Shown here: piece by piece, positions 43 through 43,783 of the stretch
Numbering within the stretch: the stretch's first letter is position 1
How the letters are laid out: the number at the start of each line of letters is the position of its first letter
NCBI RefSeq assembly: GCF_004010195.1
Contig: NC_057759.1
Location: 4,144,301 to 4,208,300 of the forward strand
DNA length: 64,000 nt
Direction of reading: 5' to 3'
Source: Chiloscyllium plagiosum
Lineage: Eukaryota
Notes under the pieces: model-generated
Databases searched by the model: none
Told to the model about the DNA's origin: nothing
The model's input: only the letters and a program-made list of their open reading frames with translations
Made by a program: the position numbers and the translations under genes

Positions 43-309
43 GTTTAACAGGAATGTTAATGCTGTTGCTCCTCTTCATCAGTCCATAAACCGTATCGAT
101 TGCTTCACAGGCGTAATTCCCAGAAACGTTTGCAGCCGCTGAGTTAATGGTGTACACGCTTCCATGATCAGGCGCAGTCTGCAGTGCGGCGCTGTCTCTG
201 TCAAGCTGGACGGAGAGCCATTCCGCCAGGACAGTGCACGTCAACGTGAACTGGAGCCCCTCGAATACTTCAGCTGGCTCCACCCTCAGCACGGGCTCGG
301 CAAATCGTT
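43..309 (-). pseudogene. Ig-like C2 domain exon of an Fc-receptor-like / leukocyte immune-type receptor gene (probably inactivated)
   Basis: Acceptor ttcgattccag then a 267-nt phase 1-1 open frame (E)RFAEPVLRVEPAEVFEGLQFTLTCTVLAEWLSVQLDRDSAALQTAPDHGSVYTINSAAANVSGNYACEAIDTVYGLMKRSNSINIPVK. It has PVL..VFEG..TLTC and SGNYAC Ig motifs typical of FCRL domains. The expected donor reads C|ataact instead of C|gtaact. Confidence 0.85.
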
Positions 310-3052: not shown

Positions 3053-3190
3053 GCGGCACGGTGGCACGGTGGTTAGCACTGCTGTCTCACAGCGCCAGAG
3101 ACCCGGGTTCAATTCCCGCTTCAGGTGACTGACTGTGTGGAGTTTGCACATTCTCCCCGTGTCTGCGTGGGTTTCCTCCGGGTGCTTTCC
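3053..3190 (+). mobile_element. HE1-type SINE 5' part
   Basis: ggcacggtggcacggtggttagcactgctg...gggttcaattcccg tRNA-like A/B boxes. Confidence 0.85.
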
Positions 3191-3382
3191 ATTAGCCATG
3201 CGGCTTGAGCAGCCACCATCCCCACACTGATTGATGATGTCATTTCCACCCCCATTATGGCCGCTTCTCGCCGTGTCTGCGTGGGTTTCCTCCGGGTGCT
3301 TTCCATTAGCCATGCGGCTTGAGCAGCCATCATCCCCACACTGATTGATGATGTCATTTCCACCCCCATTATGGCCGCTTCC
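3157..3382 (+). repeat. 114-bp tandem duplication spanning the SINE/Penelope junction
   Basis: Two near-identical units starting at 3157 and 3271. Confidence 0.9.
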
Positions 3383-6239: not shown

Positions 6240-9200
6240 TTTTTTCTTTTTTTTTCTTTCATTTTTTTTGCAGCAGAGAGCGGCGGGAGCTGGACGGAAG
6301 TGAAGCCGGAGTTCAGAGCTGGTCGGGAAGGTAAGTGATTGTTATTTAAGAACTTACCGCGACGCCAACGGTCTTTTTGCAGCAGAGAGCGGCGGGAGCT
6401 GGGCGGAAGTGAAGTCGGAGCGCAGAGTTGGTCGGGAAGGTAAGTGATTGTTATTTGAGTGGAGAAGGAACCTGAGACACTACACGTGTAGTGTCTCCCA
6501 ACCTCCCTCCTCCTCTAACCTAAAAGACAAGGACTCAGTCGGCTGAACAGGTAAGCTACTTAGTGTTTTTGTTTTGGAGTTATGGCAGCGCAGGCAGTGG
6601 AACGTTCCTCCTGCAGGATGTTTGAGGTAGGGGTGACCACCGATGCTCCTGCCGACTTCATCTGCAGGAAGTGCAGCCAGGTCCAGCTCTTCACAGACCG
6701 CGTCAGGGAACTGGAGCTGGAGTGGGGTGAACTGAGAATTATTCGAGAGGCTGAGAGGATGATAGATAGAAGCAACAGGGACATAGTTACGCCAGAGGTA
6801 GCTGGGTAACAGTTAGAGGTGGGAAGGGGAGGAAGCAGGCAGTGCAGGGATCCCCTGTGATCGTTCCCCTCAACAATAAGTATACTGCTTTCTATACTGT
6901 TGGGGAGCCGGCCTCGCAGGGGTAAGCTACAGTGACCGAGCCTCTGGCACGAGGTCCGGCTCTGAGGCTCAGAAGAGAAAGGGGGAGAGGAGGAGAGCGC
7001 TAGGTATAGGAGACTCTATTGTTAGAGGGACAGACAGGCCGTTCTGTGGACATGGGCGAGACTCTCGGTTGGTTTGTTGCCTCCCAGGTGCCAGGGTCTG
7101 AGACGTCTCGGACCGTGTCTTCAGAATCCTTAAGGGGGAGGGTGTGCGCCAGAAGTCGTGGTGCACGTTGGCACCAACGACATAGGTAGGAAGAGGGGTG
7201 GGGAGGACATNNNNNNNNNNNNNNNNNNNNNNNNNNNNNNNNNNNNNNNNNNNNNNNNNNNNNNNNNNNNNNNNNNNNNNNNNNNNNNNNNNNNNNNNNN
7301 NNNNNNNNNNNNNNNNNNNNNNNNNNNNNNNNNNNNNNNNNNNNNNNNNNNNNNNNNNNNNNNNNNNNNNNNNNNNNNNNNNNNNNNNNNNNNNNNNNNN
7401 NNNNNNNNNNNNNNNNNNNNNNNNNNNNNNNNNNNNNNNNNNNNNNNNNNNNNNNNNNNNNNNNNNNNNNNNNNNNNNNNNNNNNNNNNNNNNNNNNNNN
7501 NNNNNNNNNNNNNNNNNNNNNNNNNNNNNNNNNNNNNNNNNNNNNNNNNNNNNNNNNNNNNNNNNNNNNNNNNNNNNNNNNNNNNNNNNNNNNNNNNNNN
7601 NNNNNNNNNNNNNNNNNNNNNNNNNNNNNNNNNNNNNNNNNNNNNNNNNNNNNNNNNNNNNNNNNNNNNNNNNNNNNNNNNNNNNNNNNNNNNNNNNNNN
7701 NNNNNNNNNNNNNNNNNNNNNNNNNNNNNNNNNNNNNNNNNNNNNNNNNNNNNNNNNNNNNNNNNNNNNNNNNNNNNNNNNNNNNNNNNNNNNNNNNNNN
7801 NNNNNNNNNNNNNNNNNNNNNNNNNNNNNNNNNNNNNNNNNNNNNNNNNNNNNNNNNNNNNNNNNNNNNNNNNNNNNNNNNNNNNNNNNNNNNNNNNNNN
7901 NNNNNNNNNNNNNNNNNNNNNNNNNNNNNNNNNNNNNNNNNNNNNNNNNNNNNNNNNNNNNNNNNNNNNNNNNNNNNNNNNNNNNNNNNNNNNNNNNNNN
8001 NNNNNNNNNNNNNNNNNNNNNNNNNNNNNNNNNNNNNNNNNNNNNNNNNNNNNNNNNNNNNNNNNNNNNNNNNNNNNNNNNNNNNNNNNNNNNNNNNNNN
8101 NNNNNNNNNNNNNNNNNNNNNNNNNNNNNNNNNNNNNNNNNNNNNNNNNNNNNNNNNNNNNNNNNNNNNNNNNNNNNNNNNNAAGGCAGTTCGAGGGGGA
8201 TCTGCTTTTGGAGGTAGTATGGGCTGAAGTCAGAAATAGGAAAGGTGCAGTCACCTTGTTGGGTGTTTACTATAGGCCCCCCAATAGCAGCAGAGATGTG
8301 GAGAAACAGATTGGGAAACAGATTTTGGAAAGGTGCAGAAGCCACAGGGTAGTAGTCATGGGCGATTTCAACTTCCCAAATATTGATTGGAAGCTCTTTA
8401 GATCAAGTAGATTGGACGGGGCGGTGTTTGCGCAGTGTGTCCAGGAAGCTTTTCTAAATCAGTATGCAGATTGTCCGACCAGAGGGAAAGCCATATTGGA
8501 TTTGGTACTCGGTAACGAACCGGGACAAGTGATGGGCTTGTTAGTGGGTGAGCATTTTGGTGATGGTGGCCACAATTCTGTGACTTTTCACCTTGGTTAT
8601 GGAGAGAGATAGGTGTGTGCAACAGGGTAGGTTTTACAATTGGGGGGAAGGGTAAATACGATGCTGCAAGACAGGATCTGAGGAGCATAAATTGGGAGCA
8701 TAGGCTGTCAGGAAAGAATGTCGTTGAAATGTGGAACTTTTTCAAGGAACAGATACGACGTGTCCTTGATATGTATGCACCTGTAGGCAAGAAAGAGATG
8801 GTCGTGTGAGGGAACCTTGGTTGACGAGGGAGGTTGAATGTCTTGTAAAGAGGTAGAAGGAGGCTTACATAAGGTTGAGGAAACAAGGTTCAGACAGAGC
8901 GTTGGAGGGATACAGGATAGCCAAGGCGGAGCTGAAGAAAGGGATTAGGAGAGCTAAGAGAGGGCATGAAAAATCTTTGGCGGGTAGTATCAAGGATAAC
9001 CCCAAGGCCTTTTATGCGTATGTGAGAAACATGAGAATGACGATAACGAGGATAGGTCTGATCAAGGACAGTAGTGGGACACTGTGTATTGAGTCAGAAG
9101 AGATAGGACAGGTCTTGAATGAGTACTTTTCTTCAGTAGTTACAAATGAGAGGGACTGTATTGTTGAAGATGAGAGTATGAAACGGACTGGAAAGCTGGA

Positions 9201-10590
9201 GGAGATACTTGTTAGGAAGGAAGATGTGTTGGGCATTTTGAAAAACTTGAGAATAGACAGGTCCCCCGGGCTTGATGAGATATATCCTAGGATTCTGTGG
9301 GAAGCAAGAGAGGAAGTTGCAGAGCCGTTGGTAATGATCTTTTTGTCTTCACTGTCAACAGGGGTGGTACCAGGGGACTGGAGAGTGGCGAATGTTGTGC
9401 GCCTGTTCACGAAAGGGAATAGGGATAACCCCGGGAATTACAGGCCAGTTAGTCTTACTTCGGTGGTAGGCAAAGTAATGGGTAGTGAGGGATAGGATTT
9501 ATGAGTATCTGGAAAGACGCTACTTGATTAGGGACAGCCAGCACGGATTTGTGAGGAGTAGGTCTTGCCTTACGAGTCTTATTGAATTCTTTGAGGAGGG
9601 AACCAAGCAGGTGGATGAAGGTAGAGCAGTGGATGTAGTGTACATGGATTTTAGTAATGCATTTGATAATGTCCCCCATGGTAGGCTTATGGGGAAAGTC
9701 AGGAGGCATGGGATAGTGGGAAATTTGTCCAGTTGGATAGAGAACTGGCTAACCGGTCGAAGTCAGAGAGTGGTGGTAAATATTCAGCCTGGAGCATAGT
9801 TACAAGTGGAGTTCCGCAGGGATCAGTTCTGAGTCCTCTGCTGTTTGTAATTTTTATTAATGACTTGGAAGAGGGAGTCTAAGGGTAGGTGAGTACATTT
9901 GCAGACGATATGAAGATTGGTGGAGTTGTGGATAGTGAGGAGGGCTGTTGTCGTCTGCAAAGGGAATTAGATATGACGCAGAGCTGGGCTGAGGAGTGGC
10001 AGGTATTAGCGTTCATTAGCAGAGGGATTGAATTCAAGAGTCGTGAGGTGATGGTGCAGCTGTACAGAACCTTGGTAAGGCCACATTTGGAGTACTGTGT
10101 GCAGTTCTGGTCGCCTCACTTTTGGAAAGATGTGGAAGCTTTGGCGAGGGTGCAGAGGAGATTTACCACGATGTTGCCTCGGATGGAGAATAGGTCGTAC
10201 GAGGATAGGTTGAGAGTGCTAGGCCTTTTCTTATCGGAACGGTGAAGGGTGAGGGGTGACTTGATAGAGGTTTATAAGATGATCAGGGGAATCGATAGAA
10301 TAGACAGTCAGATACGTTTTCCCCGGGTACAACAGAGTGTTACAAGGGGACATAAATTTAAAGTGAAGGGTGGAAGGTATCGGGGGGATGTCAGGCGTAG
10401 GTTCTTTACCCAGAGAGTGGTGGGGGCATGGAATGCGCTGCCTGTGGGAGTGGTAGAGTCAGAATCATTGGTGACCTTTAAGCGGCAATTGGATATGTAC
10501 ATCGATGGGTACTTCAGCTAGAACAAATGTTCGGCACAACATCGTGGGCCGAAGGCCCTGTTTTTTGCTGTATTGTGCTATGTTCTGTGA
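6240..10590 (+). mobile_element. Near full-length CR1 LINE (5' UTR monomers, ORF1 zinc-finger/SGNH esterase, ORF2 endonuclease-RT), disrupted; gap 7211-8182
   Basis: ORF1 from ATG 6582 (SSCRM..FICRKC, coiled coil, GDS, HVGTND); ORF2 YYRPP, GDFN, LDLV, NYRPVSLTS, QHGF, YMDF, FADD; tatgttct-like tail. Confidence 0.95.
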
Positions 10591-10730
10591 GTGAACCTAC
10601 TTTGTATTAGCAAATTGTCTGCCCAGCTAACTTCCCTCCAATGTAATGTGGAACATGCCAAGGCACAAAACAGAAACAAGTGTTAGGGAATATCGAAGAT
10701 TAAAAACCAAAACAATATTGGCAGTTTTAC

Positions 10731-10884
10731 CTGTCAGTTTCAAGCCGTTTGTAAAATTTTCGACAATGATGACCACCATCAGAATAAACACGAAGACACT
10801 GAACCAGATTTGCACCAAAATCACATCAGTGTCTTCTCGTTTTGCACAAGAAGAGGATGCCAGTTTAGCTCTACCCTCATCCAC
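10731..10884 (-). CDS. Transmembrane exon of an Ig-like immune receptor (LRC/GPVI/NKp46-like TM); possibly pseudogenic
   Basis: ttctgtcag acceptor and AG|gtaaaa donor flank VDEGRAKLASSSCAKREDTDVILVQIWFSVFVFILMVVIIVENFTNGLKLT(G): ~22 hydrophobic residues ending in E-N-F. Phase 0 in, phase 1 out. Confidence 0.6.
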
Positions 10885-11089
10885 CTGACAGAAATGATTG
10901 AGGAGCAAAGATGCACCGAACTCCTCATTTTAGATATGGCCAACTTGGAACGGTTGCAGTAAAAGCCAACGACTTCAGGTGAGAAGGGAATTGTAGGAAT
11001 GTAACTTTGGTCTCCACAAAATTGACGGAAGGGAGGGTTAGGATTTGCTTGAATCGGTCGATGTAAGCCTTCAGCCCATCAACCCTGTA

Positions 11090-12010
11090 CTACCAAAAAG
11101 CATACTACTGTCCTCCTTTCTGCATTAGGCCCGTATCCTTGAATGCTGAGAAACATCAAGTGGATTTCTGTGTACTTCGTAAAGATCGTGAGGTTACCTG
11201 CAATCCAAACAGTGCATTTCAGACATCCACAGGCTCTGGGTGATAAGCAGATCCTTAAATCCCTTCTAAAACTCTTGCCTTTCATATTAAATTTATAATA
11301 CCCTTTTACTGGCCCTTTGACTAAAGTGAACAGCTGCATCCTGTCCCCCTGCCCATGAACCTCAATCTTACACACCTCTATCAGGCCTCCCACCTCTGGT
11401 CCAACGAAAACAACCCAGACTCTCTTCATTGCTGAAATACTCCATCCCAGGTAACATGCTGGTGAATCTCCTTTGCACCCACTCCAGTGCAATCACATCA
11501 TTCCTATAGTGCGGATACTGGAACTGAGCACAGTGGTAGTTGAGGCTGGAGCTTTTATCAATAGAATGTTGGGAGCTTGAGGGGAGATCCTATGAAGGTT
11601 TGTAGAATCATGAAGGTCATAGATAACATGGATTGGCAAGGTCTTTCTCCCATTAGAATGTGAGGACTGCACTGCTGGAGATCAGAGTCGAACAGTGTGG
11701 AAAAGCACAGCAGGTCAGGCCGTATCCGAAGAGCAGGATAGTGGAGGCTCAAACTCGAGGGCATAGGTTTAATATAAGGGGGAAAGATTTGAAATGATCT
11801 TGAGATGCAGTTGTTCCACTTAGATGGTGATGAATGCATATAAAATGAGCTGCCAGACGCAGTGGTAGAGGTGGGTACAATTATAATATTTAAAAGACCT
11901 TTTGACAGACACATAATTAAAAATGTTTAGAGGGATGGGGGCCAAAGTTAGGCAAATGAGACTGAATCAGATTGGGATGGCTGACCAGTGCGATGGAGTT
12001 GAACACAACC
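11090..12010. mobile_element. Decayed CR1 3' fragments (minus ~11090-11535, plus ~11560-12010)
   Basis: RT C-terminal/3' UTR similarity to other CR1 copies. Confidence 0.7.
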
Positions 12011-12113: not shown

Positions 12114-12422
12114 AATCATTGGTGACCTTTAAGCGGCAATTGGATATGTACATTGATGGGTACTTCAGCTAGAACAAATGTTCGGCACAACATCGTGGGC
12201 CGAAGGCCCTGTTTTTTGCTGTATTGTGCTATGTTCTGTGAGTGAACCTACGCTGTTGGCATCACTTTGTATTAGCAAATTGTCTGCCCAGCTAACTTCC
12301 CTCCAATGTAATGTGGAATATGCCAAGGCACAAAAGAGAAACAAGTGTTAGGGAATATCGAAGATTAAAAACCAAAACAATATTGGCAGTTTCAAGCCGT
12401 TTGTAAAATTTTCGACAATGAT
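12114..12422 (+). repeat. ~310-bp direct duplicate of 10463-10770
   Basis: Near-identical sequence covering the CR1 tail, flank and 3' part of the TM exon. Confidence 0.92.
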
Positions 12423-14078: not shown

Positions 14079-14464
14079 CACACTTCTGACGAAGAGTCAC
14101 TGGACTCAGATTAGTAATTCTGTTTCTCTCTCTCCACAGATGATGCCAGAACCGCTGAGTTTCACCCAGAACTTCGTGTTGAAAACATATAATATTTAAA
14201 ATAACTCCATGAACCTAGTATTCTGTCAACAAGACACCGTTCTTTCACACGTGCACTTTCATGAGACTGACCCAGCTAGCATAGAACTGGTTCCTACAGA
14301 GAGCACAACTAATGATACTTCGGTTTATATTTAGCAGCAGGACTCCCTGATCATGCCAGGATAACGGCTCCAGTTAGGAAATTCATATTCTATGGCTGAT
14401 CCATTAGCCGTCTGGCTGATCCATTGGTCTTTTCTTCTTCCTACAGCGTCCCCAGAGCACTTTC

Positions 14465-15190
14465 ATAGAACATAGAACATAGAACATAGAAGAATACAGC
14501 GCAGTACAGGCCCTTTGGCCCTCGATGTTGCGCCGATCCAAGCCCACCTAACCTATACTAACCCACTATCCTCCATNNNNNNNNNNNNNNNNNNNNNNNN
14601 NNNNNNNNNNNNNNNNNNNNNNNNNNNNNNNNNNNNNNNNNNNNNNNNNNNNNNNNNNNNNNNNNNNNNNNNNNNNNNNNNNNNNNNNNNNNNNNNNNNN
14701 NNNNNNNNNNNNNNNNNNNNNNNNNNNNNNNNNNNNNNNNNNNNNNNNNNNNNNNNNNNNNNNNNTTTCACCCAGAACTTCGTGTTGAAAACCTATAATA
14801 TTTAAAATAACTCCATGAACCTAGTATTCTGTCAACAAGACACCGTTCTTTCACATGTGCACTTTCATGAGACTGACCCAGCTAGCATAGAACTGGTTCC
14901 TACAGAGAGCACAACTAATGATACTTCGGTTTATATTTAGCAGCAGGACTCCCTGATCATGCCAAGATAACGGCTCCAGTTAGGAAATTCATATTCTATG
15001 GCTGATCCATTAGCCGTCTGGCTGATCCATAGGTCTTTTCTTCTTCCTACAGCGTCCCCAGAGCACTTTCGCACCAGGTCCAGTTCCTCAGACTGTGCCT
15101 GGACAGTGGTGGTGTGCATACACTGCAGCCTGCCTCCTGTACCCCTAAAATCCATATATACCACATCTACCGCTTTCCCCTCATCAACCT
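14465..15190 (-). mobile_element. 5'-truncated CR1 insertion (3' tail 14465-14576, 5' end 15146-15190), mostly in gap, with TSD ACTTTC
   Basis: (catagaa)n tail follows actttc at 14459-14464. The RT fragment VDEGKAVDVVYMDF ends at 15190 and is followed by actttc at 15191-15196. Confidence 0.75.
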
Positions 15191-18100
15191 ACTTTCGCAC
15201 CAGGTCCAGTTCCTCAGACTGTGCCTGGACAGTGGTGGTGTGCATACACTGCAGCCTGCCTCCTGTACCCCGAGTGTATCGGCCTAAAAGTATTTTCTTC
15301 TTTCAGGCAGTAATGGCATCGATGCTGCAAATTTTGCAGTGTCCTTCTCGACACTAAGCAGTAGGGGCGAACTCAACAGTTAGGACATCTTTGGCGGATA
15401 TTCTGTGGGACTGGTTATGTTTTCCTTCACCCCTATTTGTGAGTTTGCAGCTTTCACGTGGTCAATATGCTTGTTCAGTCCCGCTTCACCAACTCGAACT
15501 TTGCATGTCAGTGGACGTGACCTCACAAAACCTATGCTATTGCCGTGGCTTCAAACCAAAACTTCGTCCTCAGAAAAAAATCTATCTCTCACGAAGCGGA
15601 GTCTTGCGTTGGCATTCCTGATCCCATTTCACCCTTATCCACGTCCAGGAAGATCAGGTTTAATCTTCATTAGCAACTCTAGTGGTGTCCCTGCAGCTGT
15701 GTGAGGGATGGTCCTAATTAAACAAGAATTGGGGCAGGTTGGTTTTGAGTGAAGCTGTAGACTGTTTCTATAAACATGCCTTCAAAGTTTGGATTTCTCC
15801 TTCCTCCAGCGATGGATGCTATGGAGCTATCCTGACATGTCAAATGCCTTTTTAACTTCTGGTCGAATTCTCTGCTGGTAGGTGATGGCCCATTTTCTGC
15901 GAGCAACTTTTTTGCAGTCCATCAATTGCAAGAGATGCTTGCAACTTTTCAATCATTTTCATGTATTTTACGAATAAACTATATGCACGTCCAACCATTT
16001 TGAATGATGACTAAAAACATTGAGCCCATGTAAGGAAACGCACAATTGACATTAGATTAGATTACAGTGTGGTAACAGGCCCTTCGGCCCAACAAGTCCA
16101 CACCGACCCGCAACCCACCCATTTACCTAACACAAAACCTAACACTACGGGCAATTTAGCATGGCCAATTCACCTAACCTGCACATCTTTGGCCTGTGGC
16201 AGGAAACCGGAGCACCCGGAGGAAACCCACGCAGACACGGGGAGAACGTGCAAAGTCCACACAGTCAGTCGCCTGAGGTGGGAATTGAACCCGGGTCTCT
16301 GGCACTGTGAGGCCGTAGTGCTAACTACTGTGCCACCGTGCCGCCCACTAGCATATAATCAAAATCAGGGTTTAGCAGAGATGGGGAGCTTCTGGTGGCA
16401 ATTTCTGCTCTTGGAAGCAATCTGGTCACTGTCCCACCAAAGTAGAAAAGTCAGCATCCAATCCTAGCCACCAGACATAACTTATGTGCAACAGCTTCAT
16501 TTTGGAAACTCCTACATATGCCTGGTGGAGATTAGCCAGCATCGGGCAGTCAGCTGTACAAAAGAAATCCGTTTTTCTCCCCAAAATAACAATATATCCT
16601 CTCTGTCTTCTGGTCTTTCCAAATCCAAAAAGGTTTCAATTCTGATTGTGATGGTCCTTCTGTTTCCGCATCATTCCAGCTGTTTCTGATTTGCCAAGAT
16701 GGGAACTTTTTATTTCCATAGTCAGATATCTTCAACAGTGACAGGAAGGGAGAACAGGAAGTTTAGAAAAAAAGCAGAACGGACTCTTCAAGTGACGGAT
16801 ATCCACACTATCAGTCTTACGAATAAATGCTGTATTCGAGGGATTGGGTATTAGTCCAGCTGTGAAAAGTGGTTTACTTTTAGTTAGAAATCCCAGCAAA
16901 GATAAACTGTTCTGTCAAACTTTACAAATGGTACAACCGACGCTACCCATTCCACAAATTGGACCGGTTTGGTGATTACTGCCTCTACTTTTGCTCGTAA
17001 TGCAATGGTCCTCGGCGGGCCTTACAGAATCCTGGAATTGTTTCTTGATCAACATGTAACGTGACCTTGCCTCATTTGATAGGCCCTAAACCTTTTGAAA
17101 AACTTTCAGATATTTAATTAAGACTTAACTCAGACAGCTATTTTCTGATTGAGAAATGTTGAGTCAAACAAGATTAATCTTTCTCAACCAACTTCAGTTC
17201 ATCAAGCTTGGGTCCGACTTTTTTTTTTCTACAGTCAGCTCTAACCAGACCAAGTGCTTCTCATAAGAGATCTATAGTTGTATCCTTACTCTGTAGGGGT
17301 TACATGGTAGAAGTTCTTAGCCAGGCTAAGGTCTTTAACAAACTCAAGGGGAGGTGTCCAGATTGAATTTTGGTAAAGACTGGTTCCACATCAGTGCCGG
17401 TATCAATCTCTATTAAATAGGCGACTATTTAACCAAACGTTTAAATCGATTAGTTCGGATTTGATGTTGTGTACCAATCTAACTGTTGCAAACCACTTGC
17501 AGGGGGATTTTCCAGCCTGTTTACTCTCCAGGATAGCAGCTTATGAGTTCTCTTCATCAGATCAGGCTGAGTGGGACTCTTCTGCTGTCGCAAGTCCACA
17601 TACTAGTAGGACTACAATGGCCTGTGGCCTGGATCCTTGAGAAAACTTTGATTGTTTTGCCAAAGTTTGGCTTTGCTTTGGTGTTTCGCTGTGGACTGAC
17701 ATAGAGTCCCTCTGTTCAGGTTATGTCCTGAGTAAGGCTTTGCAAACGTCCTCACTGAAGTGGTGCTCACCCAACTCAGATGGCCTGGCCAGCGTGCCCA
17801 CTTCCATTAGAATGCCCTTTAACTCATAAGCTCCTTTTACCGCATTTTCAAATGAGAAAGCCAGTTGGAGCGCCTGTTTGAAATCAAATTAGGATTTCAA
17901 CTAGTAGGTACTTTTGCGTGGTTACATTATTAATCTCACATGCTAAATAATTTCTCAGCACCTCACTTAGTGTTAAAGCAAAACTACGTGCCTCTGCCAG
18001 TAATCTTAATCTTGTCATAAATCCCAATACAAATTCCCCTATTTCTCGAACTGCCGAGTAAAAGTGTTAGCATCACAGCATTAAAGGCGGCTTGGGGTTG

Positions 18101-18690
18101 TAATGTTCCATCACTGAATCCACCAACTCTGTAAAGGATTTAGCATGTGGTGCCTCGGGGAATGTTAAGCTTTTAATAATTGCAAAAGCTGCTCGCCCAA
18201 ATGCCATCAGGAGAATTATTTGCTTCGTTTTATCTGCCTTAATATCACTTCCCCAGAAAGAAATAACACATTATTTCCAGGATGTGGAAGAGCCCGTGTT
18301 GGACTGGGGTGGACAAAGTTAAAAATCAGACAACATCAGGTTATAGTGCAACAGGTATATTTGGAAGCACTAGATTTCGGAGCACTGCACATTATTCATG
18401 AGGATGTGAAGTAGGACCATAAGACATAGGAATTGTGTCTTATGCTCCTACTCCACCATTACCTATAACTCGGTATTGTGTGATTTTTAACGTTATTTCT
18501 ACATACCGGACCCAGTCTAACTTCCCAAATAATTCCATGATACCCGAAATGTTTACGCCAATTCACAGATTACTGTTGTGAGCGAATATCTTCATCGTGT
18601 GTTTTTCTGTCGTCACCACTGAAATAACTCGACAAGGACTGGTATCCAGTCAGTAAGTCACCCTTCATTTACAAGTGCATAATACATAAA
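14803..18690 (-). mobile_element. Decayed Gypsy LTR retrotransposon (gag-protease-RT-integrase remnants)
   Basis: 5' LTR end ...ttatttca then PBS-like gtggtgacgac at ~18610-18620. Gag ELVDSVMEHYNPKPP..RLRLLAE (~17950-18130), protease EIDTG (~17396-17410), integrase AENGPSPTSREF (~15870-15900) and NKHIDHVK (~15455-15480). 3' LTR ~14803-15030 resembles the 5' LTR remnant. Confidence 0.85.
16052..16347 (-). mobile_element. HE1-type SINE nested in the Gypsy element
   Basis: Full SINE with (tctaa)n tail. Confidence 0.92.
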
Positions 18691-28120: not shown

Positions 28121-30900
28121 TAGACAATAGACAATAGACAATAGACAATAGATGCAGGAGTAGGCCATTCAGCCCTTCGAGCCTGCACCGCCATATAATC
28201 ATGGCTGATCATTCCTAATCAGCATCCTGTTCCTGCCTTATCTCCATAACCCTTGATTCCACTATCTTTGAGAGCCCTATCCAACTCTTTCTTATTTGAA
28301 TCCAGAGAGTGGGCCTCCACTGCCCTCTGGGGCAGAGCATTCCACACAGCCACCACTTTCTGGGTGAAGAAGTTTCTCCTGAGCTCTGTCCTAAATGGTC
28401 TACCCCGTATTTTTAAGCTGTGTCCTCTGGTTCGGCACTCACCCATCAGTGGAAATATGTTTCCTACTGCCAGAGTGTCCAATCCTTTCATAATCTTATA
28501 CGTCTCAATCAGATCCCCTCTCAATCTTCGAAACCCAAGGGTATACAAGCCCAGTCGCTTCAGTCTTTCAGTGAAAAGCCCAGTCGCTTCAGTCTTTCAG
28601 TGAAAAGCCCAGTCGCTTCAGTCTTTCAGTGAAAAGCCCAGTCGCTTCAGTCTTTCAGTGAAAAGCCCAGTCGCTTCAGTCTTTCAGTGAAAAGCCCAGT
28701 CGCTTCAGTCTTTCAGTGAAAAGCCCAGTCGCTTCAGTCTTTCAGTGAAAAGCCCAGTCGCTTCAGTCTTTCAGTGTAAGGTAATCCTGCCATTCCAGGA
28801 ATTGACCTCGTGAACCTACGCTGCACTCCCTCAATAGCCAGAATGTCTTTCCTCAAATTTGGAGACCAGAACTGCACACAATATTCCAGNNNNNNNNNNN
28901 NNNNNNNNNNNNNNNNNNNNNNNNNNNNNNNNNNNNNNNNNNNNNNNNNNNNNNNNNNNNNNNNNNNNNNNNNNNNNNNNNNNNNNNNNNNNNNNNNNNN
29001 NNNNNNNNNNNNNNNNNNNNNNNNNNNNNNNNNNNNNNNNNNNNNNNNNNNNNNNNNNNNNNNNNNNNNNNNNNNNNNNNNNNNNNNNNNNNNNNNNNNN
29101 NNNNNNNNNNNNNNNNNNNNNNNNNNNNNNNNNNNNNNNNNNNNNNNNNNNNNNNNNNNNNNNNNNNNNNNNNNNNNNNNNNNNNNNNNNNNNNNNNNNN
29201 NNNNNNNNNNNNNNNNNNNNNNNNNNNNNNNNNNNNNNNNNNNNNNNNNNNNNNNNNNNNNNNNNNNNNNNNNNNNNNNNNNNNNNNNNNNNNNNNNNNN
29301 NNNNNNNNNNNNNNNNNNNNNNNNNNNNNNNNNNNNNNNNNNNNNNNNNNNNNNNNNNNNNNNNNNNNNNNNNNNNNNNNNNNNNNNNNNNNNNNNNNNN
29401 NNNNNNNNNNNNNNNNNNNNNNNNNNNNNNNNNNNNNNNNNNNNNNNNNNNNNNNNNNNNNNNNNNNNNNNNNNNNNNNNNNNNNNNNNNNNNNNNNNNN
29501 NNNNNNNNNNNNNNNNNNNNNNNNNNNNNNNNNNNNNNNNNNNNNNNNNNNNNNNNNNNNNNNNNNNNNNNNNNNNNNNNNNNNNNNNNNNNNNNNNNNN
29601 NNNNNNNNNNNNNNNNNNNNNNNNNNNNNNNNNNNNNNNNNNNNNNNNGACCCTGAATCTATTGAACTCTGGAAAATAATCACCAACGCATCCACGATTT
29701 CCCGAGCCACCTTCTTCAGTACCCTGGGATGCAGACCATCAGGCCCTGGAGACTTATCAACCTTCAGACCTAACAGCCTTTCCAACACCAAATCCTGGCA
29801 AATATAGATTCCCTTAAGTTCAGGTCCTTCAGCCACTGTTACCTCAGGGATATTGCTTGTGTCTTCTCCAGTGAACACAGATCTGAAGTACCAATTCAAT
29901 TCTTCTGCCATTTCTTTGTTCCTAGTAATATATTCCCCTGTTTCTGTCTTCAGGGGCCCAATTTTTGTCCTAACCATTTTTTTGCCTTGCACATACCTAA
30001 AAAAGCTTTTATATCCTCCTTTATATTCTTGGCCAGTTTACCTTCGTACCTCCTTTTTCTTCTGCGTATTTCCTTCTTAGTAATCCTCTGTTGCTCTTTA
30101 AAAGCTTCTCAGTCCTCAGTTTTCCCACTTATCTTTGCTATGTTTTTCTCTTTTAACTTTATATGTTTCTTTACTTCCCTCGTCAGCCACGGCCACCCAT
30201 GCCTCCTCCTAGGATCTTTCTTCCTTTTTGGAATGAACTGATCCTGCATCTTCTGCATTATACACAGAAATATCCGCCATTGTTCCTCCACTGTCATCCC
30301 TGCTAAGGTATTGCACCATTGAACTTTGGCCCGCTCCTCCCTCATAGCTCCATAGTTCCCTTTATTCAACAGAAGTACTGTCACTTCCGATTGTACCCTC
30401 TCCCTCTCAAATTGCAGATTGAAGCTTATTGTATTATGGTCACTACTTCTCAATGGCTCCTTCACTTCGAGGTCTCTGACCAATTCTGGTTTGTTACACA
30501 ATACCAGATTCAGAATTGCCTTCTCCCTGGTCGGCTCCAGCACCAGCTGCTCTAAGAATCCATCTCTGAGGCACTCCACAAAGTCTCTTTCTTGAGGCCC
30601 CATACCATCCTGATTCTCCCAGTCTACATGCATGTTAAAATCCCCCATTAGAAATGTAGTGACATCTTTGCGACAGGCCAATTTCAGCTCCTGATTTAAC
30701 TTACATCCGACATCCAGACTACTGTTTGGAGGCCTGTAGATGACTCCCAAGAGGGTCTTTTTACCCTTAGTATTTCGAAGCTCTATCCACACTGACTCTA
30801 CATCCCCTGACTCTAGGTCCCCTCGCGCAAGGGACTGAATATCATCCCTTACCAACAAGGCCACCACACCCCCTCTGCCCGTCAGTCTGTCCTTACGATA
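28121..30900 (-). mobile_element. 5'-truncated CR1 LINE (endonuclease + RT); gap 28890-29648
   Basis: IYRPP, GDFN, SDHN, KSPGPDG motifs; (ctattgt)n tail. Confidence 0.93.
28547..28776 (+). repeat. Perfect 29-bp minisatellite, 8 copies, inside CR1 ORF2
   Basis: Unit aagcccagtcgcttcagtctttcagtgaa at 28547, 28576 ... 28750. Confidence 0.95.
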
Positions 30901-33130: not shown

Positions 33131-34218
33131 GTAGTACAGATTGAGGGATATATTTGAGACCTATAAAATTATGAAGGACAAAGATAGTGCAGATAGCAAA
33201 AACCTTTATTTATAACATGCAACATTGATTATATTTTTCTATCTCTTTCGCCCCGCAACAGCTACCAGACATGTTGAGTTTCCTCAGGAATTTGTGTTTA
33301 TATCCTGTAATGTCAACTCTGTTTTTCTTGTTCTCTCTCTCTCTCACGGGCGCGTGCGTGCGCAACACATCACACACTCCACCCAGCACCACGCTGCCAG
33401 ACCTTCTGAGGTTTTCGTGTAAATTTTGCATTTGTTTCAGACTTTCAGCATCCATAGTTTTTTGCTTTATCTTGGAGAATACATTTTGTTTATCGTTTGC
33501 AATTCTTTTTTTCAGTTATGATCTTCTAAACCGAGGAAGGATGTTCTGGCTATGGAGGGAGCGCAACGAAGCTTTCCCAGGCTGATTCCTGGGATAGCAG
33601 GACTGATGGATGAAGGGAGACTGAATCGTTTGGAAGTATATCCACGAGATTGTTTTTAACGAGGGGCCTTCTCATAGAAACATATAAACTTTGCAAGAGC
33701 AGACGACAGGGATAAACATAGAGAAGGTGTTTTGGGTATATATGGGGATTGAGGGCGGTGATTTCAGAAGCTAATTATTACAATCTGATGGAGATCGGAT
33801 AGGACTAGGATAAGAATATCTTCACCCCGTGAGCAGTAAGCCTGTTGAAGTCTTTGCCAAAGAAAGCGTGGGGGGCCAGAACTTTGAATATTGTTCGAGA
33901 AGGAGTTGGATAGAGTTCTTAGAGGCTGAAACGGGGTACAGGGGACTGAGCTGAATGATCCCATTGAATGGGCAGAGCGGACCAGTGGGGCCGAATGCCC
34001 TACTCCTACTCCTATTTTCTGTGTTTCTCAGACACAGTGACAAATGAAGAACTCTTGGCATAGCATTGTAGCAGAAACACTAGCAGGCAGATCGACAGCA
34101 ACTCCTCAATAAGAGTGTGATTTAATGTGCTCTAAGCATGCTGTAATAGACAATGCCGCAGTTCCACGTACAGGTGCCAGTGGTACACACTGAGAAACAT
34201 TTCTCTGTCTTCACTCAC

Positions 34219-36900: not shown

Positions 36901-38430
36901 GCAGCTAAGCAGTTCAGTTCATACTGGAATCAAACAGAGACGTTCTGGTTGGATAGCCTATAGAATAATGGATATACAGAGTGAGTTATAGCCTGGATCT
37001 CATTGAGGGATTTAAAAACTTGTAAAGAAATACATCATGAGATGTAGTCTTGGACAGCATTTAATTCCCTTCCCTCATTGCTCCATCCGAAAATGATGGG
37101 GAGCTGCCTTCTTGAACCACTGCAGTCTGTGTGCTGTGTGGAAACCTTAGGAAAAGAGTTCTAGTGGATTTACACAGCGACACTGAAGTCACAGCAATAT
37201 ATTTTGGAGCTAGGTGATAAATGACTTGGAGAGGAACTTACTGGTATGATGTTCCCATGCTGCCCATCTCCTTTTAAATGTAAATAGTTGTGGTTTTGGA
37301 AAGTGCTGCATATGAGTTTCTGCAGAGCATCTCGTAAATAGTTGACAGCGCTGGTATTGAGCGTTGGTGGAAGAGAGAATGCCTATTTGTGAATGTCATG
37401 CCAAACAAGTAGGCTGCTTTGCCCATGATGGTGTTAAGCTTCTTGAATGTTGTTGGAGTTCCACCCATCCAGGCAAGTGGGGAGCATTCCACCATACACC
37501 CGTCTTATGCCTTGTAAATGGATAGACTTTGGAGAGTCAGGAAATGAATTGCACACTGCAATATTCATAGCCTGCACTTGCAGCCACAACATATTTAATG
37601 CTGGTTCAATTCAATTTCTGGTCAATGGTTATCCTCAGGATTGTAATAATGGAGATTCAGTGATGGTAACACCCTTGCATGTTAGATTGTATCTTATTCG
37701 AGACTATCATTGTCTGCCGTTTGTGTGGTACAGATGTTACTTGTCACTTTTCAGCGTAAGCCTGAAAATGTTTAGGTCTTGTTGCACTTGGACATGGATT
37801 GCTTCAGTGTCTGAAGAGTTATGATTGTTGTTGAATATTGTGCAATTATCAGCAAGCATCCCACTTCATACTGTCAGAGAATTGTAGATTCACTACTGTG
37901 TGGAAACAGGTCTTTCCCCCTCACAAGTCCACAACGACCGTCTGAAGAGGACCGACACAAACACATTGCTCATTATTCTACATTTACCCTGACTAATGCA
38001 CCTGACTTCTGATTTTAAAATGGAGGGAATCGCAATTATGAAACAGCTGAAGATGGTTGGGCCGAGAGCACTGCCCAGTGGAACTCCTGTCGACATGTCC
38101 TGGAGCTGAGATGACTGCCCTCCAAACAGCACATTCAACTACCCACGTACCAGTTAGGATGGTATCCAATAGACAGTTTGTCCCCTGACACTGATTGATT
38201 CCAGGTTTGCTAGAGGTCTTTCATGCCACACTCAGTGAAATGCGGCCGTGATGTCAAAGTCTGTCATTCTCACGTCACCTCTGGAATTCAGCTCTTTTGC
38301 TGATGCTCAATTAATAAGGTCAGCAATTGAGTAGCTCTGGCAGAACCCAAACTGGATGTCACTAAGCTGATTCTTGCTGAGAAGGTACTGCTTGATAACA
38401 CCGTTGATGACAACTTCCATTACTTTAGTG

Positions 38431-42671: not shown

Positions 42672-43783
42672 ACTTGGAAATTTGTTGCTGTTCCTTCAGA
42701 ATCTCTGAGCAAAAATCTTCAACTCCATGGAATTGGAGAGACAGTTAGAAGCGATGGGGAATTTGCAACAGTATGTGATGGATGACAGTTATAGGAAGGG
42801 GGGCAAGTCTCAGAGAGAGTCACATAGATGGGTTAACTCCAGGAAAAGTAAGAGACGTAGGCACCTAGGACAGGAGTCTTTTATGGATATACCCATTTCA
42901 AACATCCATGCTGTTTTGTAAAATGTAGGGGGTGATAAATTCTCAGGGGAAAGTAACACGAACAGTCAAGTTTCTGGTATTGAGACTGGCTCTAATGCAA
43001 CGGGGGATACATCAGCTTCCAAGAGGTCAATTGTGTTAGGATATTCTTTAGTCCGAGATACAGACAGACGTTTCTGTGGCCAGCAATGAAAAAGCAGAAC
43101 GATGTGTTGCTTCTTTGGTGCCAGGAACAAGGATGTGTCAGAGAGGGTGCAGAATGTTCCCATGGGGGAGAGGGTCCAGCAAGAGGTCATTGTCCACATT
43201 GGAACCAACCATAGCCGAAGGGAAGAAACTTGGAAATTTGTTGCTGTTCCTTCAGAATCTCTGAGCAAAAATCTTCAATTCCATGGAATTGGAGAGACAG
43301 TTAGAAGCGATGGGGAATTTGCAACAGTATGTGATGGATGACAGTTATAGGAAGGCGGGCATGTCTCAGAGAGAGTCACATAGATGGGTTAACTCCAGGA
43401 AAAGTAAGAGAGGTAGGCAACTAGGACAGGAGTCTTTTGTGGATATACCCATTTCAAACATGCATGCTGTTTTGTAAAATGTAGGGGGTGATAAATTCTT
43501 AGGGGAAAGTAACACGAACAGCCAAGTTTCTGGTATTGAGGCTGGCTCTAATGCAACGGGGGATACGTCAGCTTCCAAGAGGTCAATTGTGTTAGGAGAT
43601 TCTTTAGTCCGAGATACAGACAGACGTTTCTGTGGCCATCAGTGAAAAAGCAGAACGATGTGTTGCTTCTTTGGTGCCAGGAACAAGGATGTGTCAGAGA
43701 GGGTGCAGAATGTTCCCATGGGGGAGAGGGGCCAGCAAGAGGTCATTGTCCACATTGGAACCAACCATAGCCGAAGGGAAGAA
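42672..43783 (+). repeat. 556-bp tandem duplication at the CR1 5' junction
   Basis: Units start at 42672 and 43228. Confidence 0.92.

Follow-up and report, generated by a model that had tools for sequence, protein, structure and literature searches.

The window analysed here, the whole stretch of 64,000 nt from Chiloscyllium plagiosum, carries on its minus strand a putative transmembrane (TM) exon that reads VDEGRAKLASSSCAKREDTDVILVQIWFSVFVFILMVVIIVENFTNGLKLT (10884..10731, 154 nt), with CAG before it and GTAAAA after it. A single open frame, which includes EDTDVILVQIWFSVFVFILMVVIIVENF, crosses this exon and, as first read, enters it in phase 0 and leaves it in phase 1 (Table 1). Apart from a TG microsatellite, the exon holds the top 19-mer of the whole window for hydropathy (KD 2.96); since 5 of 60 composition-matched simulated windows reached a KD of at least 2.95, this hydropathy is by itself borderline and not beyond chance. 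An assembly error is unlikely for the letters of the exon, because all 77 sampled words of 10600-11300 were present in a sequencing run of another sample from another study (X1).

Table 1. Features at and around the putative TM exon, in window coordinates
Feature	Position	Strand	Remarks
FCRL-type (D3-like) Ig pseudo-exon	43..309	-	Intact CAG acceptor; 4-codon in-frame deletion; AT at the expected donor GT (donor place inferred from the domain junction of related proteins)
Decayed LINE (reverse transcriptase pieces)	8857..10590	+	Ends ~140 nt 3' of the TM exon; Pfam RVT_1 E 7.1e-08 on 9479-9796
Read-through frame beyond GT	10627..10730	-	Open to TAG 10629-10627, 41 residues past ENF; may be the tail, should TM and tail share a terminal exon
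GT of putative donor (ACAG/GTAAAA)	10729..10730	-	Unchanged among the relatives' rows listed; use in splicing proposed
Probable exon core	10731..10841	-	111 nt, phase 1-1; short juxtamembrane segment, hydrophobic helix, ENF, then 7 codons; gap-free in 8/8 overlapping relative contigs
Glu, 17 residues C-terminal of Gln	10761-10759	-	Direct reading; no change among the relatives' rows listed
Gln (CAA) at Arg place of NxxR	10812-10810	-	Direct reading
Ile (ATT) at Asn place of NxxR	10821-10819	-	Direct reading
Asp at Tyr place of DYT	10833-10831	-	Direct reading
Alternative intact AG	10836..10837	-	Weak GAG context; would give a 105-nt phase-1 exon beginning at a DYT-like motif
Likely original phase-1 acceptor	10842..10843	-	AA instead of AG, behind a pyrimidine tract (70% pyrimidine); inferred dead acceptor, AG here in other copies not seen
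5' extension of first-read exon + CAG (10887-10885)	10842..10887	-	Indel-rich in relatives; 10868-10887 matches LINE 9608-9627 in 19/20 nt
Partial duplicate of 10463-10770	12114..12422	-	Has the 3' part of the TM exon (36-nt exact match), GT gone (13-nt loss), plus the LINE end

The TM exon is surrounded by a LINE, a partial self-duplicate and a dead FCRL exon. The last of these is the sole Ig exon of the window, in which none of LRC type was found, and it is clearly of FCRL type (Pfam Ig_2 E 8e-11; best PDB match FCRL5, E 3.8e-14), with 84-86% identity to the five best of its 18 matches (bamboo/epaulette shark), all 18 of which come from carpet sharks. It lies on the same strand as the TM exon, 10.4 kb downstream in the direction of transcription, and so cannot be its ectodomain in one transcript; the preliminary description, which placed the TM exon next to an FCRL-type Ig exon, was right about the Ig exon, but at this distance downstream, and decayed, it is no source of an ectodomain. 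No further exon of its own gene was seen in the window, where it stands isolated. Upstream of the TM exon, no ectodomain exon was found in 53 kb (10885-64000): tblastn of 82 proteins against the window gave only three rows with E <0.05 outside 1-400, all of them on the LINE; the known Ig exon was all that a profile built from 14 shark FCRLs recovered; and Pfam returned no Ig match on 83 minus-strand upstream ORFs, chosen for a length of 55 aa or more, a Cys and repeat masking below one half, a search that could miss stop-broken exons of non-FCRL type and within whose range about 1.9 kb of N could conceivably conceal an exon.

The LINE, which we take to be of the CR1 type, is shared in part with the duplicate at 12114-12422. 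This duplicate and 10463-10770 differ by indels in both directions, each having nucleotides that the other lacks (14 nt and 13 nt), and the 13-nt loss took the GT between short direct repeats; the pair may reflect a true duplication or a haplotype artefact. Other repeats of the window are near-identical tandem duplicates at 42672-43783 (556 nt, 97%), 14160-15070 (305 nt, 99%, across an N gap), 28547-28776 (29-nt unit x 7.9) and 3151-3381 (114-nt unit x 2), some of which may be assembly artefacts. A heavily broken stretch at ~15400-18300 (minus), resembling by eye an LTR-retrotransposon gag/pol relic, gave no Pfam match on three frames, and sub-cut-off Pfam scores at 33213-33515 and 37896-38138 (minus; GSHPx, E 0.0018, and zf-Sec23_Sec24, E 0.004) were taken as chance.

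Copies of the TM exon in related species were sought by comparing 4 of 24 sequencing runs with 10590-11040, the run of organism C being read to 64%. Eight contigs overlap the exon core: five are from organism C, one over the whole 451-nt stretch and four others over the exon, and three from organism B, all over the exon and two of them over its 5' part. Two of the organism-C contigs, with ~81% identity, end their homology at 10854, and unrelated pyrimidine-rich sequence (exon strand) then follows 5' of the exon; one of the two also ends its homology at 10668. None of the 12 indel rows listed falls in 10731-10841, as 10 lie in the 45 nt 10842-10886 and two in the 3' flank, and six further rows, placed via the depth table, are likewise outside the core, which is thus free of gaps in all eight contigs, whereas the flanks show no fewer than 16 gap events. 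The listed changes in the core are mainly hydrophobic-for-hydrophobic, with one of nine sites at codon position 2 (p 0.14, not significant). Codon 17, Glu in the window, is Asp in 5/5 covering relative contigs, codon 27 is Cys or Tyr instead of Trp, again in 5/5, and codon 28 is Leu in three; three changes set the window apart from every covering relative, all non-synonymous and one of them to Trp. The relatives' residues at codons 17, 27 and 28 approach the GPVI TM string as the preliminary description quoted it, a string that we take here as given.

Among the difference rows listed and checked (share at least 0.58 in one run), no relative copy restores Arg, Asn or Tyr at the signature places discussed below; a change limited to two organism-C paralogues (share 0.57) would fall outside these rows, if they are ranked by share. 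On the same assumption of ranking, we infer that an organism-B copy (record 9, share 0.67) keeps Gln, Ile and Asp. A paralogue (record 5) has 17 differences, 10 of them probably within 10796-10854 and the other seven among the rows listed. Changes of the kinds that would yield Arg or Asn do occur among 63 further difference rows, at places that may or may not be the signature ones. The Gln codon had been explained as a decayed Arg, one CpG transition from CGA; with no Arg among the rows listed and Gln apparently kept in organism B, recent CpG decay is not supported. The paralogues that were to be checked for an Arg do exist in two other species, but no Arg copy is among the rows listed. Overall, these comparisons support the view that the TM piece has the character of an exon present in several copies, with a decayed FCRL exon as its neighbour. 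Because upstream sequence of the window type occurs in copies of all three species and is absent from the two organism-C contigs, the window-type copy may have arisen long ago as a truncated duplicate, broken near 10855. No RNA run was among those listed as holding the sampled words; 2% of a single-cell run (X21) and the contigs of a guessed-RNA run (X23) gave 0 reads, which speaks neither for nor against expression.

The crowding of gaps into 10842-10886 in the relatives indicates that the first 14 codons of the exon as first read are non-coding, without coding constraint. The exon core is probably ~105-111 nt long, in phase 1-1, and the phase-0 acceptor first proposed is probably not the real one, so that of the AG and GT reported on either side of the TM peptide, all three elements are present on the minus strand but the 5' AG is doubtful as an acceptor. 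We infer from the sequence that the true acceptor is either the AA at 10843-10842 or the GAG at 10837-10836, each giving a phase 1-1 exon; a GAG preceded by a purine run, as here, is a poor splice acceptor. In the three relative copies spanning the first-proposed AG, the start phase counted from that AG is 1, 2 and 2. A wrong acceptor, or 7 nt in excess of one relative copy, accounts better for the phase-0 start than the 1-nt indel that had been suggested. A LINE-like patch of 20 nt, 10868-10887, falls exactly on this AG and agrees in 19/20 nt, in opposite orientation, with 9608-9627 in the reverse-transcriptase region of the adjoining LINE (E 0.013), by insertion or chance. The first-proposed acceptor may be a templated insert from the LINE; the window has 7 nt more than two relative contigs here and a third shows another gap pattern. 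At the 3' end, the GT comes after seven tail codons, with the 41-residue read-through as the alternative layout. In the relatives this read-through tail carries in-frame gaps of 9 nt and 3 nt, but the 1-nt gap of one paralogue weakens the case for its in-frame conservation. Xenopus TM1 genes, in the part of PMC2413239 available, have helix and tail in one terminal exon, and a GT donor is therefore no mark of the TM1 type.

What defines the NxxR type of helix, in the accessible text of PMC6557307, is an NxxR motif with its Arg, preceded by a DYT consensus, and acidic residues where the helix ends on the C-terminal side. The TM exon agrees with this in spacing: acidic-x-Thr is followed by the N and R places, and these by Glu as the acidic residue at the C-end of the helix. 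Gln stands in place of the Arg near the helix N-terminus, as the preliminary description correctly read from the CAA codon, with no Arg among the relatives' rows listed; Ile takes the place of the Asn three residues ahead; and the DYT place reads E-D-T, its first position being Asp in 5/5 covering relatives and Tyr not seen. The changes of the relatives at codons 17, 27 and 28 appear to shift toward the DYT motif as this source gives it (PMC6557307). Neutral decay at 10-19% divergence should rarely strike Tyr, Asn and Arg all three, and their joint replacement suggests that the family may never have had them. As both defining residues, Asn and Arg, are missing, we file the TM exon as a variant of the NxxR type and not as a member.

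Alignment gave mixed results, with the frog FCRL P0056 as the one NxxR reference helix compared. In an ungapped test against this helix, the register that pairs Asn with Ile and Arg with Gln ranked first among 17 (score 12; p 0.011 by shuffling the core). A further ungapped comparison gave 16 for P0052, an ordinary uncharged shark helix, and 5 for P0056; BLASTP of the TM exon against P0056 returned no alignment, and the frog NxxR helix, used as a query against the PDB, brought up no reference helix. NxxR kinship of the TM exon is plausible but unproven. A likeness of its 'VIIVENF' to the S6 segment of voltage-gated channels was dropped for want of a Pfam, PDB or protein match. Xenopus SLAM-like genes, by the available portions of PMC6557307 and PMC4536121, have the same NxxR helix, which is thus not an LRC marker, and as no LRC-type Ig exon lies in the window, nothing links the TM exon to LRC over FCRL or SLAM. 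Of the earlier proposal of a relic of an LRC-style activating receptor, the relic status is upheld by the missing upstream Ig exons, but the absence of Asn, Arg and the Tyr of DYT speaks against the receptor type.

Protein searches with the 51-aa frame were negative, a short hydrophobic query having little power in them: against 5.8 billion clusters (proteins of 91-2000 aa only) there were three candidates, none at E 10, against 1.84 billion representatives no match at E 0.001, and none in PDB, Pfam or Atlas. A 22-nt scan of metagenome contigs gave a single 24-nt match with unrelated flanks, taken as chance. Our comparison set comprised 82 proteins gathered via the Ig exon, of which 76 are shark FCRL-like proteins, with many isoforms included. 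An Asn-x-x-Arg helix is absent from all 76, and the TM exon reached a local score of at most 29 against all 82, with no match to any of the 21 distinct shark FCRL helices. No helix was found, by the cut-off used, in 23/76 shark FCRL-like models, and several of these run past the last Ig domain into apparent intron read-through, which leaves room for an unannotated anchor exon. Models that stop after an Ig domain, most of them from Stegostoma (P0007, P0009-P0011, P0016, P0021-P0023, P0025, P0027-P0029, P0031), are either secreted forms or have missed anchor exons. The first 34 predicted residues of P0013, P0039 and P0040 match the antisense of the LINE at 10030-10131, and the N-termini of these models may therefore be repeat-derived annotation artefacts.

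In our preferred explanation, the TM exon is an orphan and probably without function, one of several copies of a small TM exon of carpet sharks; it lies among decayed FCRL fragments, and the exon family most likely comes from a DYT..NxxR (TM1) anchor. Judged on sequence comparison, this explanation has about an even chance of being right. Its sequence, its copies in two other species, its gap-free core and the missing upstream exons were observed directly, and the absence of upstream Ig exons supports its status as a relic. The ancestor would be the TM1 anchor through which Ig receptors couple to FcR-gamma: a functional member of the family would receive its Ig ectodomain by phase-1 splicing onto the TM exon, and an Arg close to the extracellular end of the helix would be the partner of the Asp in FcR-gamma, leading to ITAM signalling by a tail-poor receptor. 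The copy in the window cannot couple in this way: it lacks both Arg and Asn, its acceptor is weak at best, and the 53 kb upstream gave no ectodomain exon. Its upstream gene may have been lost by rearrangement near 10855, before the split of the three species; the parent family would be FCRL and the ancestry of the helix would be NxxR. The conserved GT followed by a 41-residue read-through makes a poor fit to a terminal TM1 exon and counts against this explanation.

The same GT, unchanged in the rows listed as in internal TM2-type exons, would suit a true multi-copy TM exon of an unrelated, uncharged receptor type, whose likeness to GPVI, NKp46 and LILRA is the general one of Ile/Val/Leu helices. 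In its favour, the Tyr, Asn, Arg signature is wholly absent, one of the two tests ranks the ordinary helix above the frog NxxR helix, and BLASTP gives no alignment; against it, the exon matches none of the 21 shark helices (local score <=29, 82 proteins), the relatives move toward Asp-x-Thr and Cys-Leu, and the helix is followed by an acidic residue and not by a basic cluster. We regard this type as unlikely. The missing Arg might otherwise belong to a living Gln-type variant, in this or a sister copy, spliced via the GAG at 10837-10836 to a distant ectodomain and pairing through its Gln and C-terminal Glu with an adaptor or with itself. The frame is open and gap-free in three species, an intact phase-1 AG is available, Gln, Ile and Asp look common to organism B (by the ranking of rows), and the 23/76 helix-less models, several continuing into an apparent intron, make an unannotated TM exon possible; what renders this variant quite improbable is that no ectodomain exon lies within 53 kb, that a GAG behind a purine run is a poor acceptor, that the three window-specific changes are all non-synonymous, one to Trp, and that the surroundings are decayed and duplicated. 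Those surroundings, rich in repeats and local duplications, would also be at home with non-coding low-copy duplicated DNA in which one frame is hydrophobic by accident, as it was in 5/60 simulations, and the missing protein match in any database searched and the non-significant codon-position bias agree with this; however, paralogue homology stops 12 nt from a plausible acceptor with pyrimidine-rich sequence beyond, gaps spare the core on both sides, and the strand is that of the FCRL exon, and we hold an accident of this kind to be rather improbable as well.

If, as we prefer, the TM exon is an orphaned copy of a TM1-derived family, it is alone a gene fragment, and its worth lies in pointing to possible activating FCRLs in sharks. 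It loosely resembles the anchors of frog and mammalian activating receptors, a hint that suggests but does not demonstrate such receptors in sharks. It is conceivable, though we are inclined to doubt it, that carpet sharks keep an unannotated TM1-type exon family in the FCRL cluster, and that working Arg- or Gln-bearing paralogues make the TM-less FCRL models activating partners of the tyrosine-motif receptors. Were such a family real, the helix by which FCRL, SLAM and LRC receptors couple to FcR-gamma would be as old as the common ancestor of the jawed vertebrates; were Arg paralogues to exist and splice to FCRL ectodomains, sharks would have paired activating and inhibitory FCRLs, and the argument for a common FcR/LRC origin would shift from amphibians back to the first jawed vertebrates. 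New, if confirmed, would be an NxxR-type helix in cartilaginous fish; all helix-bearing shark FCRL-like models examined are of the uncharged type.

A 2014 survey, in its accessible part, listed no FCRL, FcR-gamma or LRC genes in sharks (PMC4016189). Shark FCRL-like genes have been annotated since, as the RefSeq matches to the Ig exon show, and FCRL-like genes are reported in bamboo shark B cells in the available text of PMC11372145. In the literature covered, which lies outside subscription papers and the 2010 Xenopus ILR paper, we found no report of NxxR helices in cartilaginous fish, and the literature searched gave none of a shark FcR-gamma. Carpet-shark FCRL/PECAM-like models (such as XP_043539689.1, XP_072422997.1 and XP_059498328.1) have a D3-like exon to which the Ig exon at 43-309 corresponds as a decayed copy. 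The helices of these models begin with a segment similar to that of the TM exon, x-Arg-x-Tyr-Ser, but are uncharged and followed by basic residues and tyrosine-motif tails, and none aligns with it.

The mix of an FCRL ectodomain with an LRC-type helix, read as a sign of common origin, has itself been known from Xenopus since 2008: according to the text available of PMC2413239, Xenopus FCRL (XFL) genes carry NxxR helices like those of LILRA2, NKp46, GPVI, OSCAR and FcalphaR, which is counted there in favour of a shared ancestry of FcR and KIR; TM1 and TM2 genes lie mixed in the FCRL clusters, one exon encodes the TM1 helix together with its short tail, and association with FcR-gamma was demonstrated for XFL2. 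The shark exon resembles XFL TM1 in having an LRC-type helix in an FCRL cluster with similar spacing, the best P0056 register placing Asn on Ile and Arg on Gln. It differs in lacking Asn, Arg and a linked ectodomain, and in the GT that follows the helix where Xenopus has helix and short tail in one exon, and the FcR-gamma association of XFL2 is not to be expected of it. Compared with the mammalian activating receptors of the LRC, the DYT place reads EDT (Asp-Asp-Thr in relatives, among the rows listed) and the NxxR place reads IxxQ, whereas the acidic-x-Thr before the helix and the acidic residue at its C-end are features that, by what is accessible of PMC6557307, the shark exon has in common with GPVI, NCR1/NKp46, LILRA2, OSCAR and FcalphaR.
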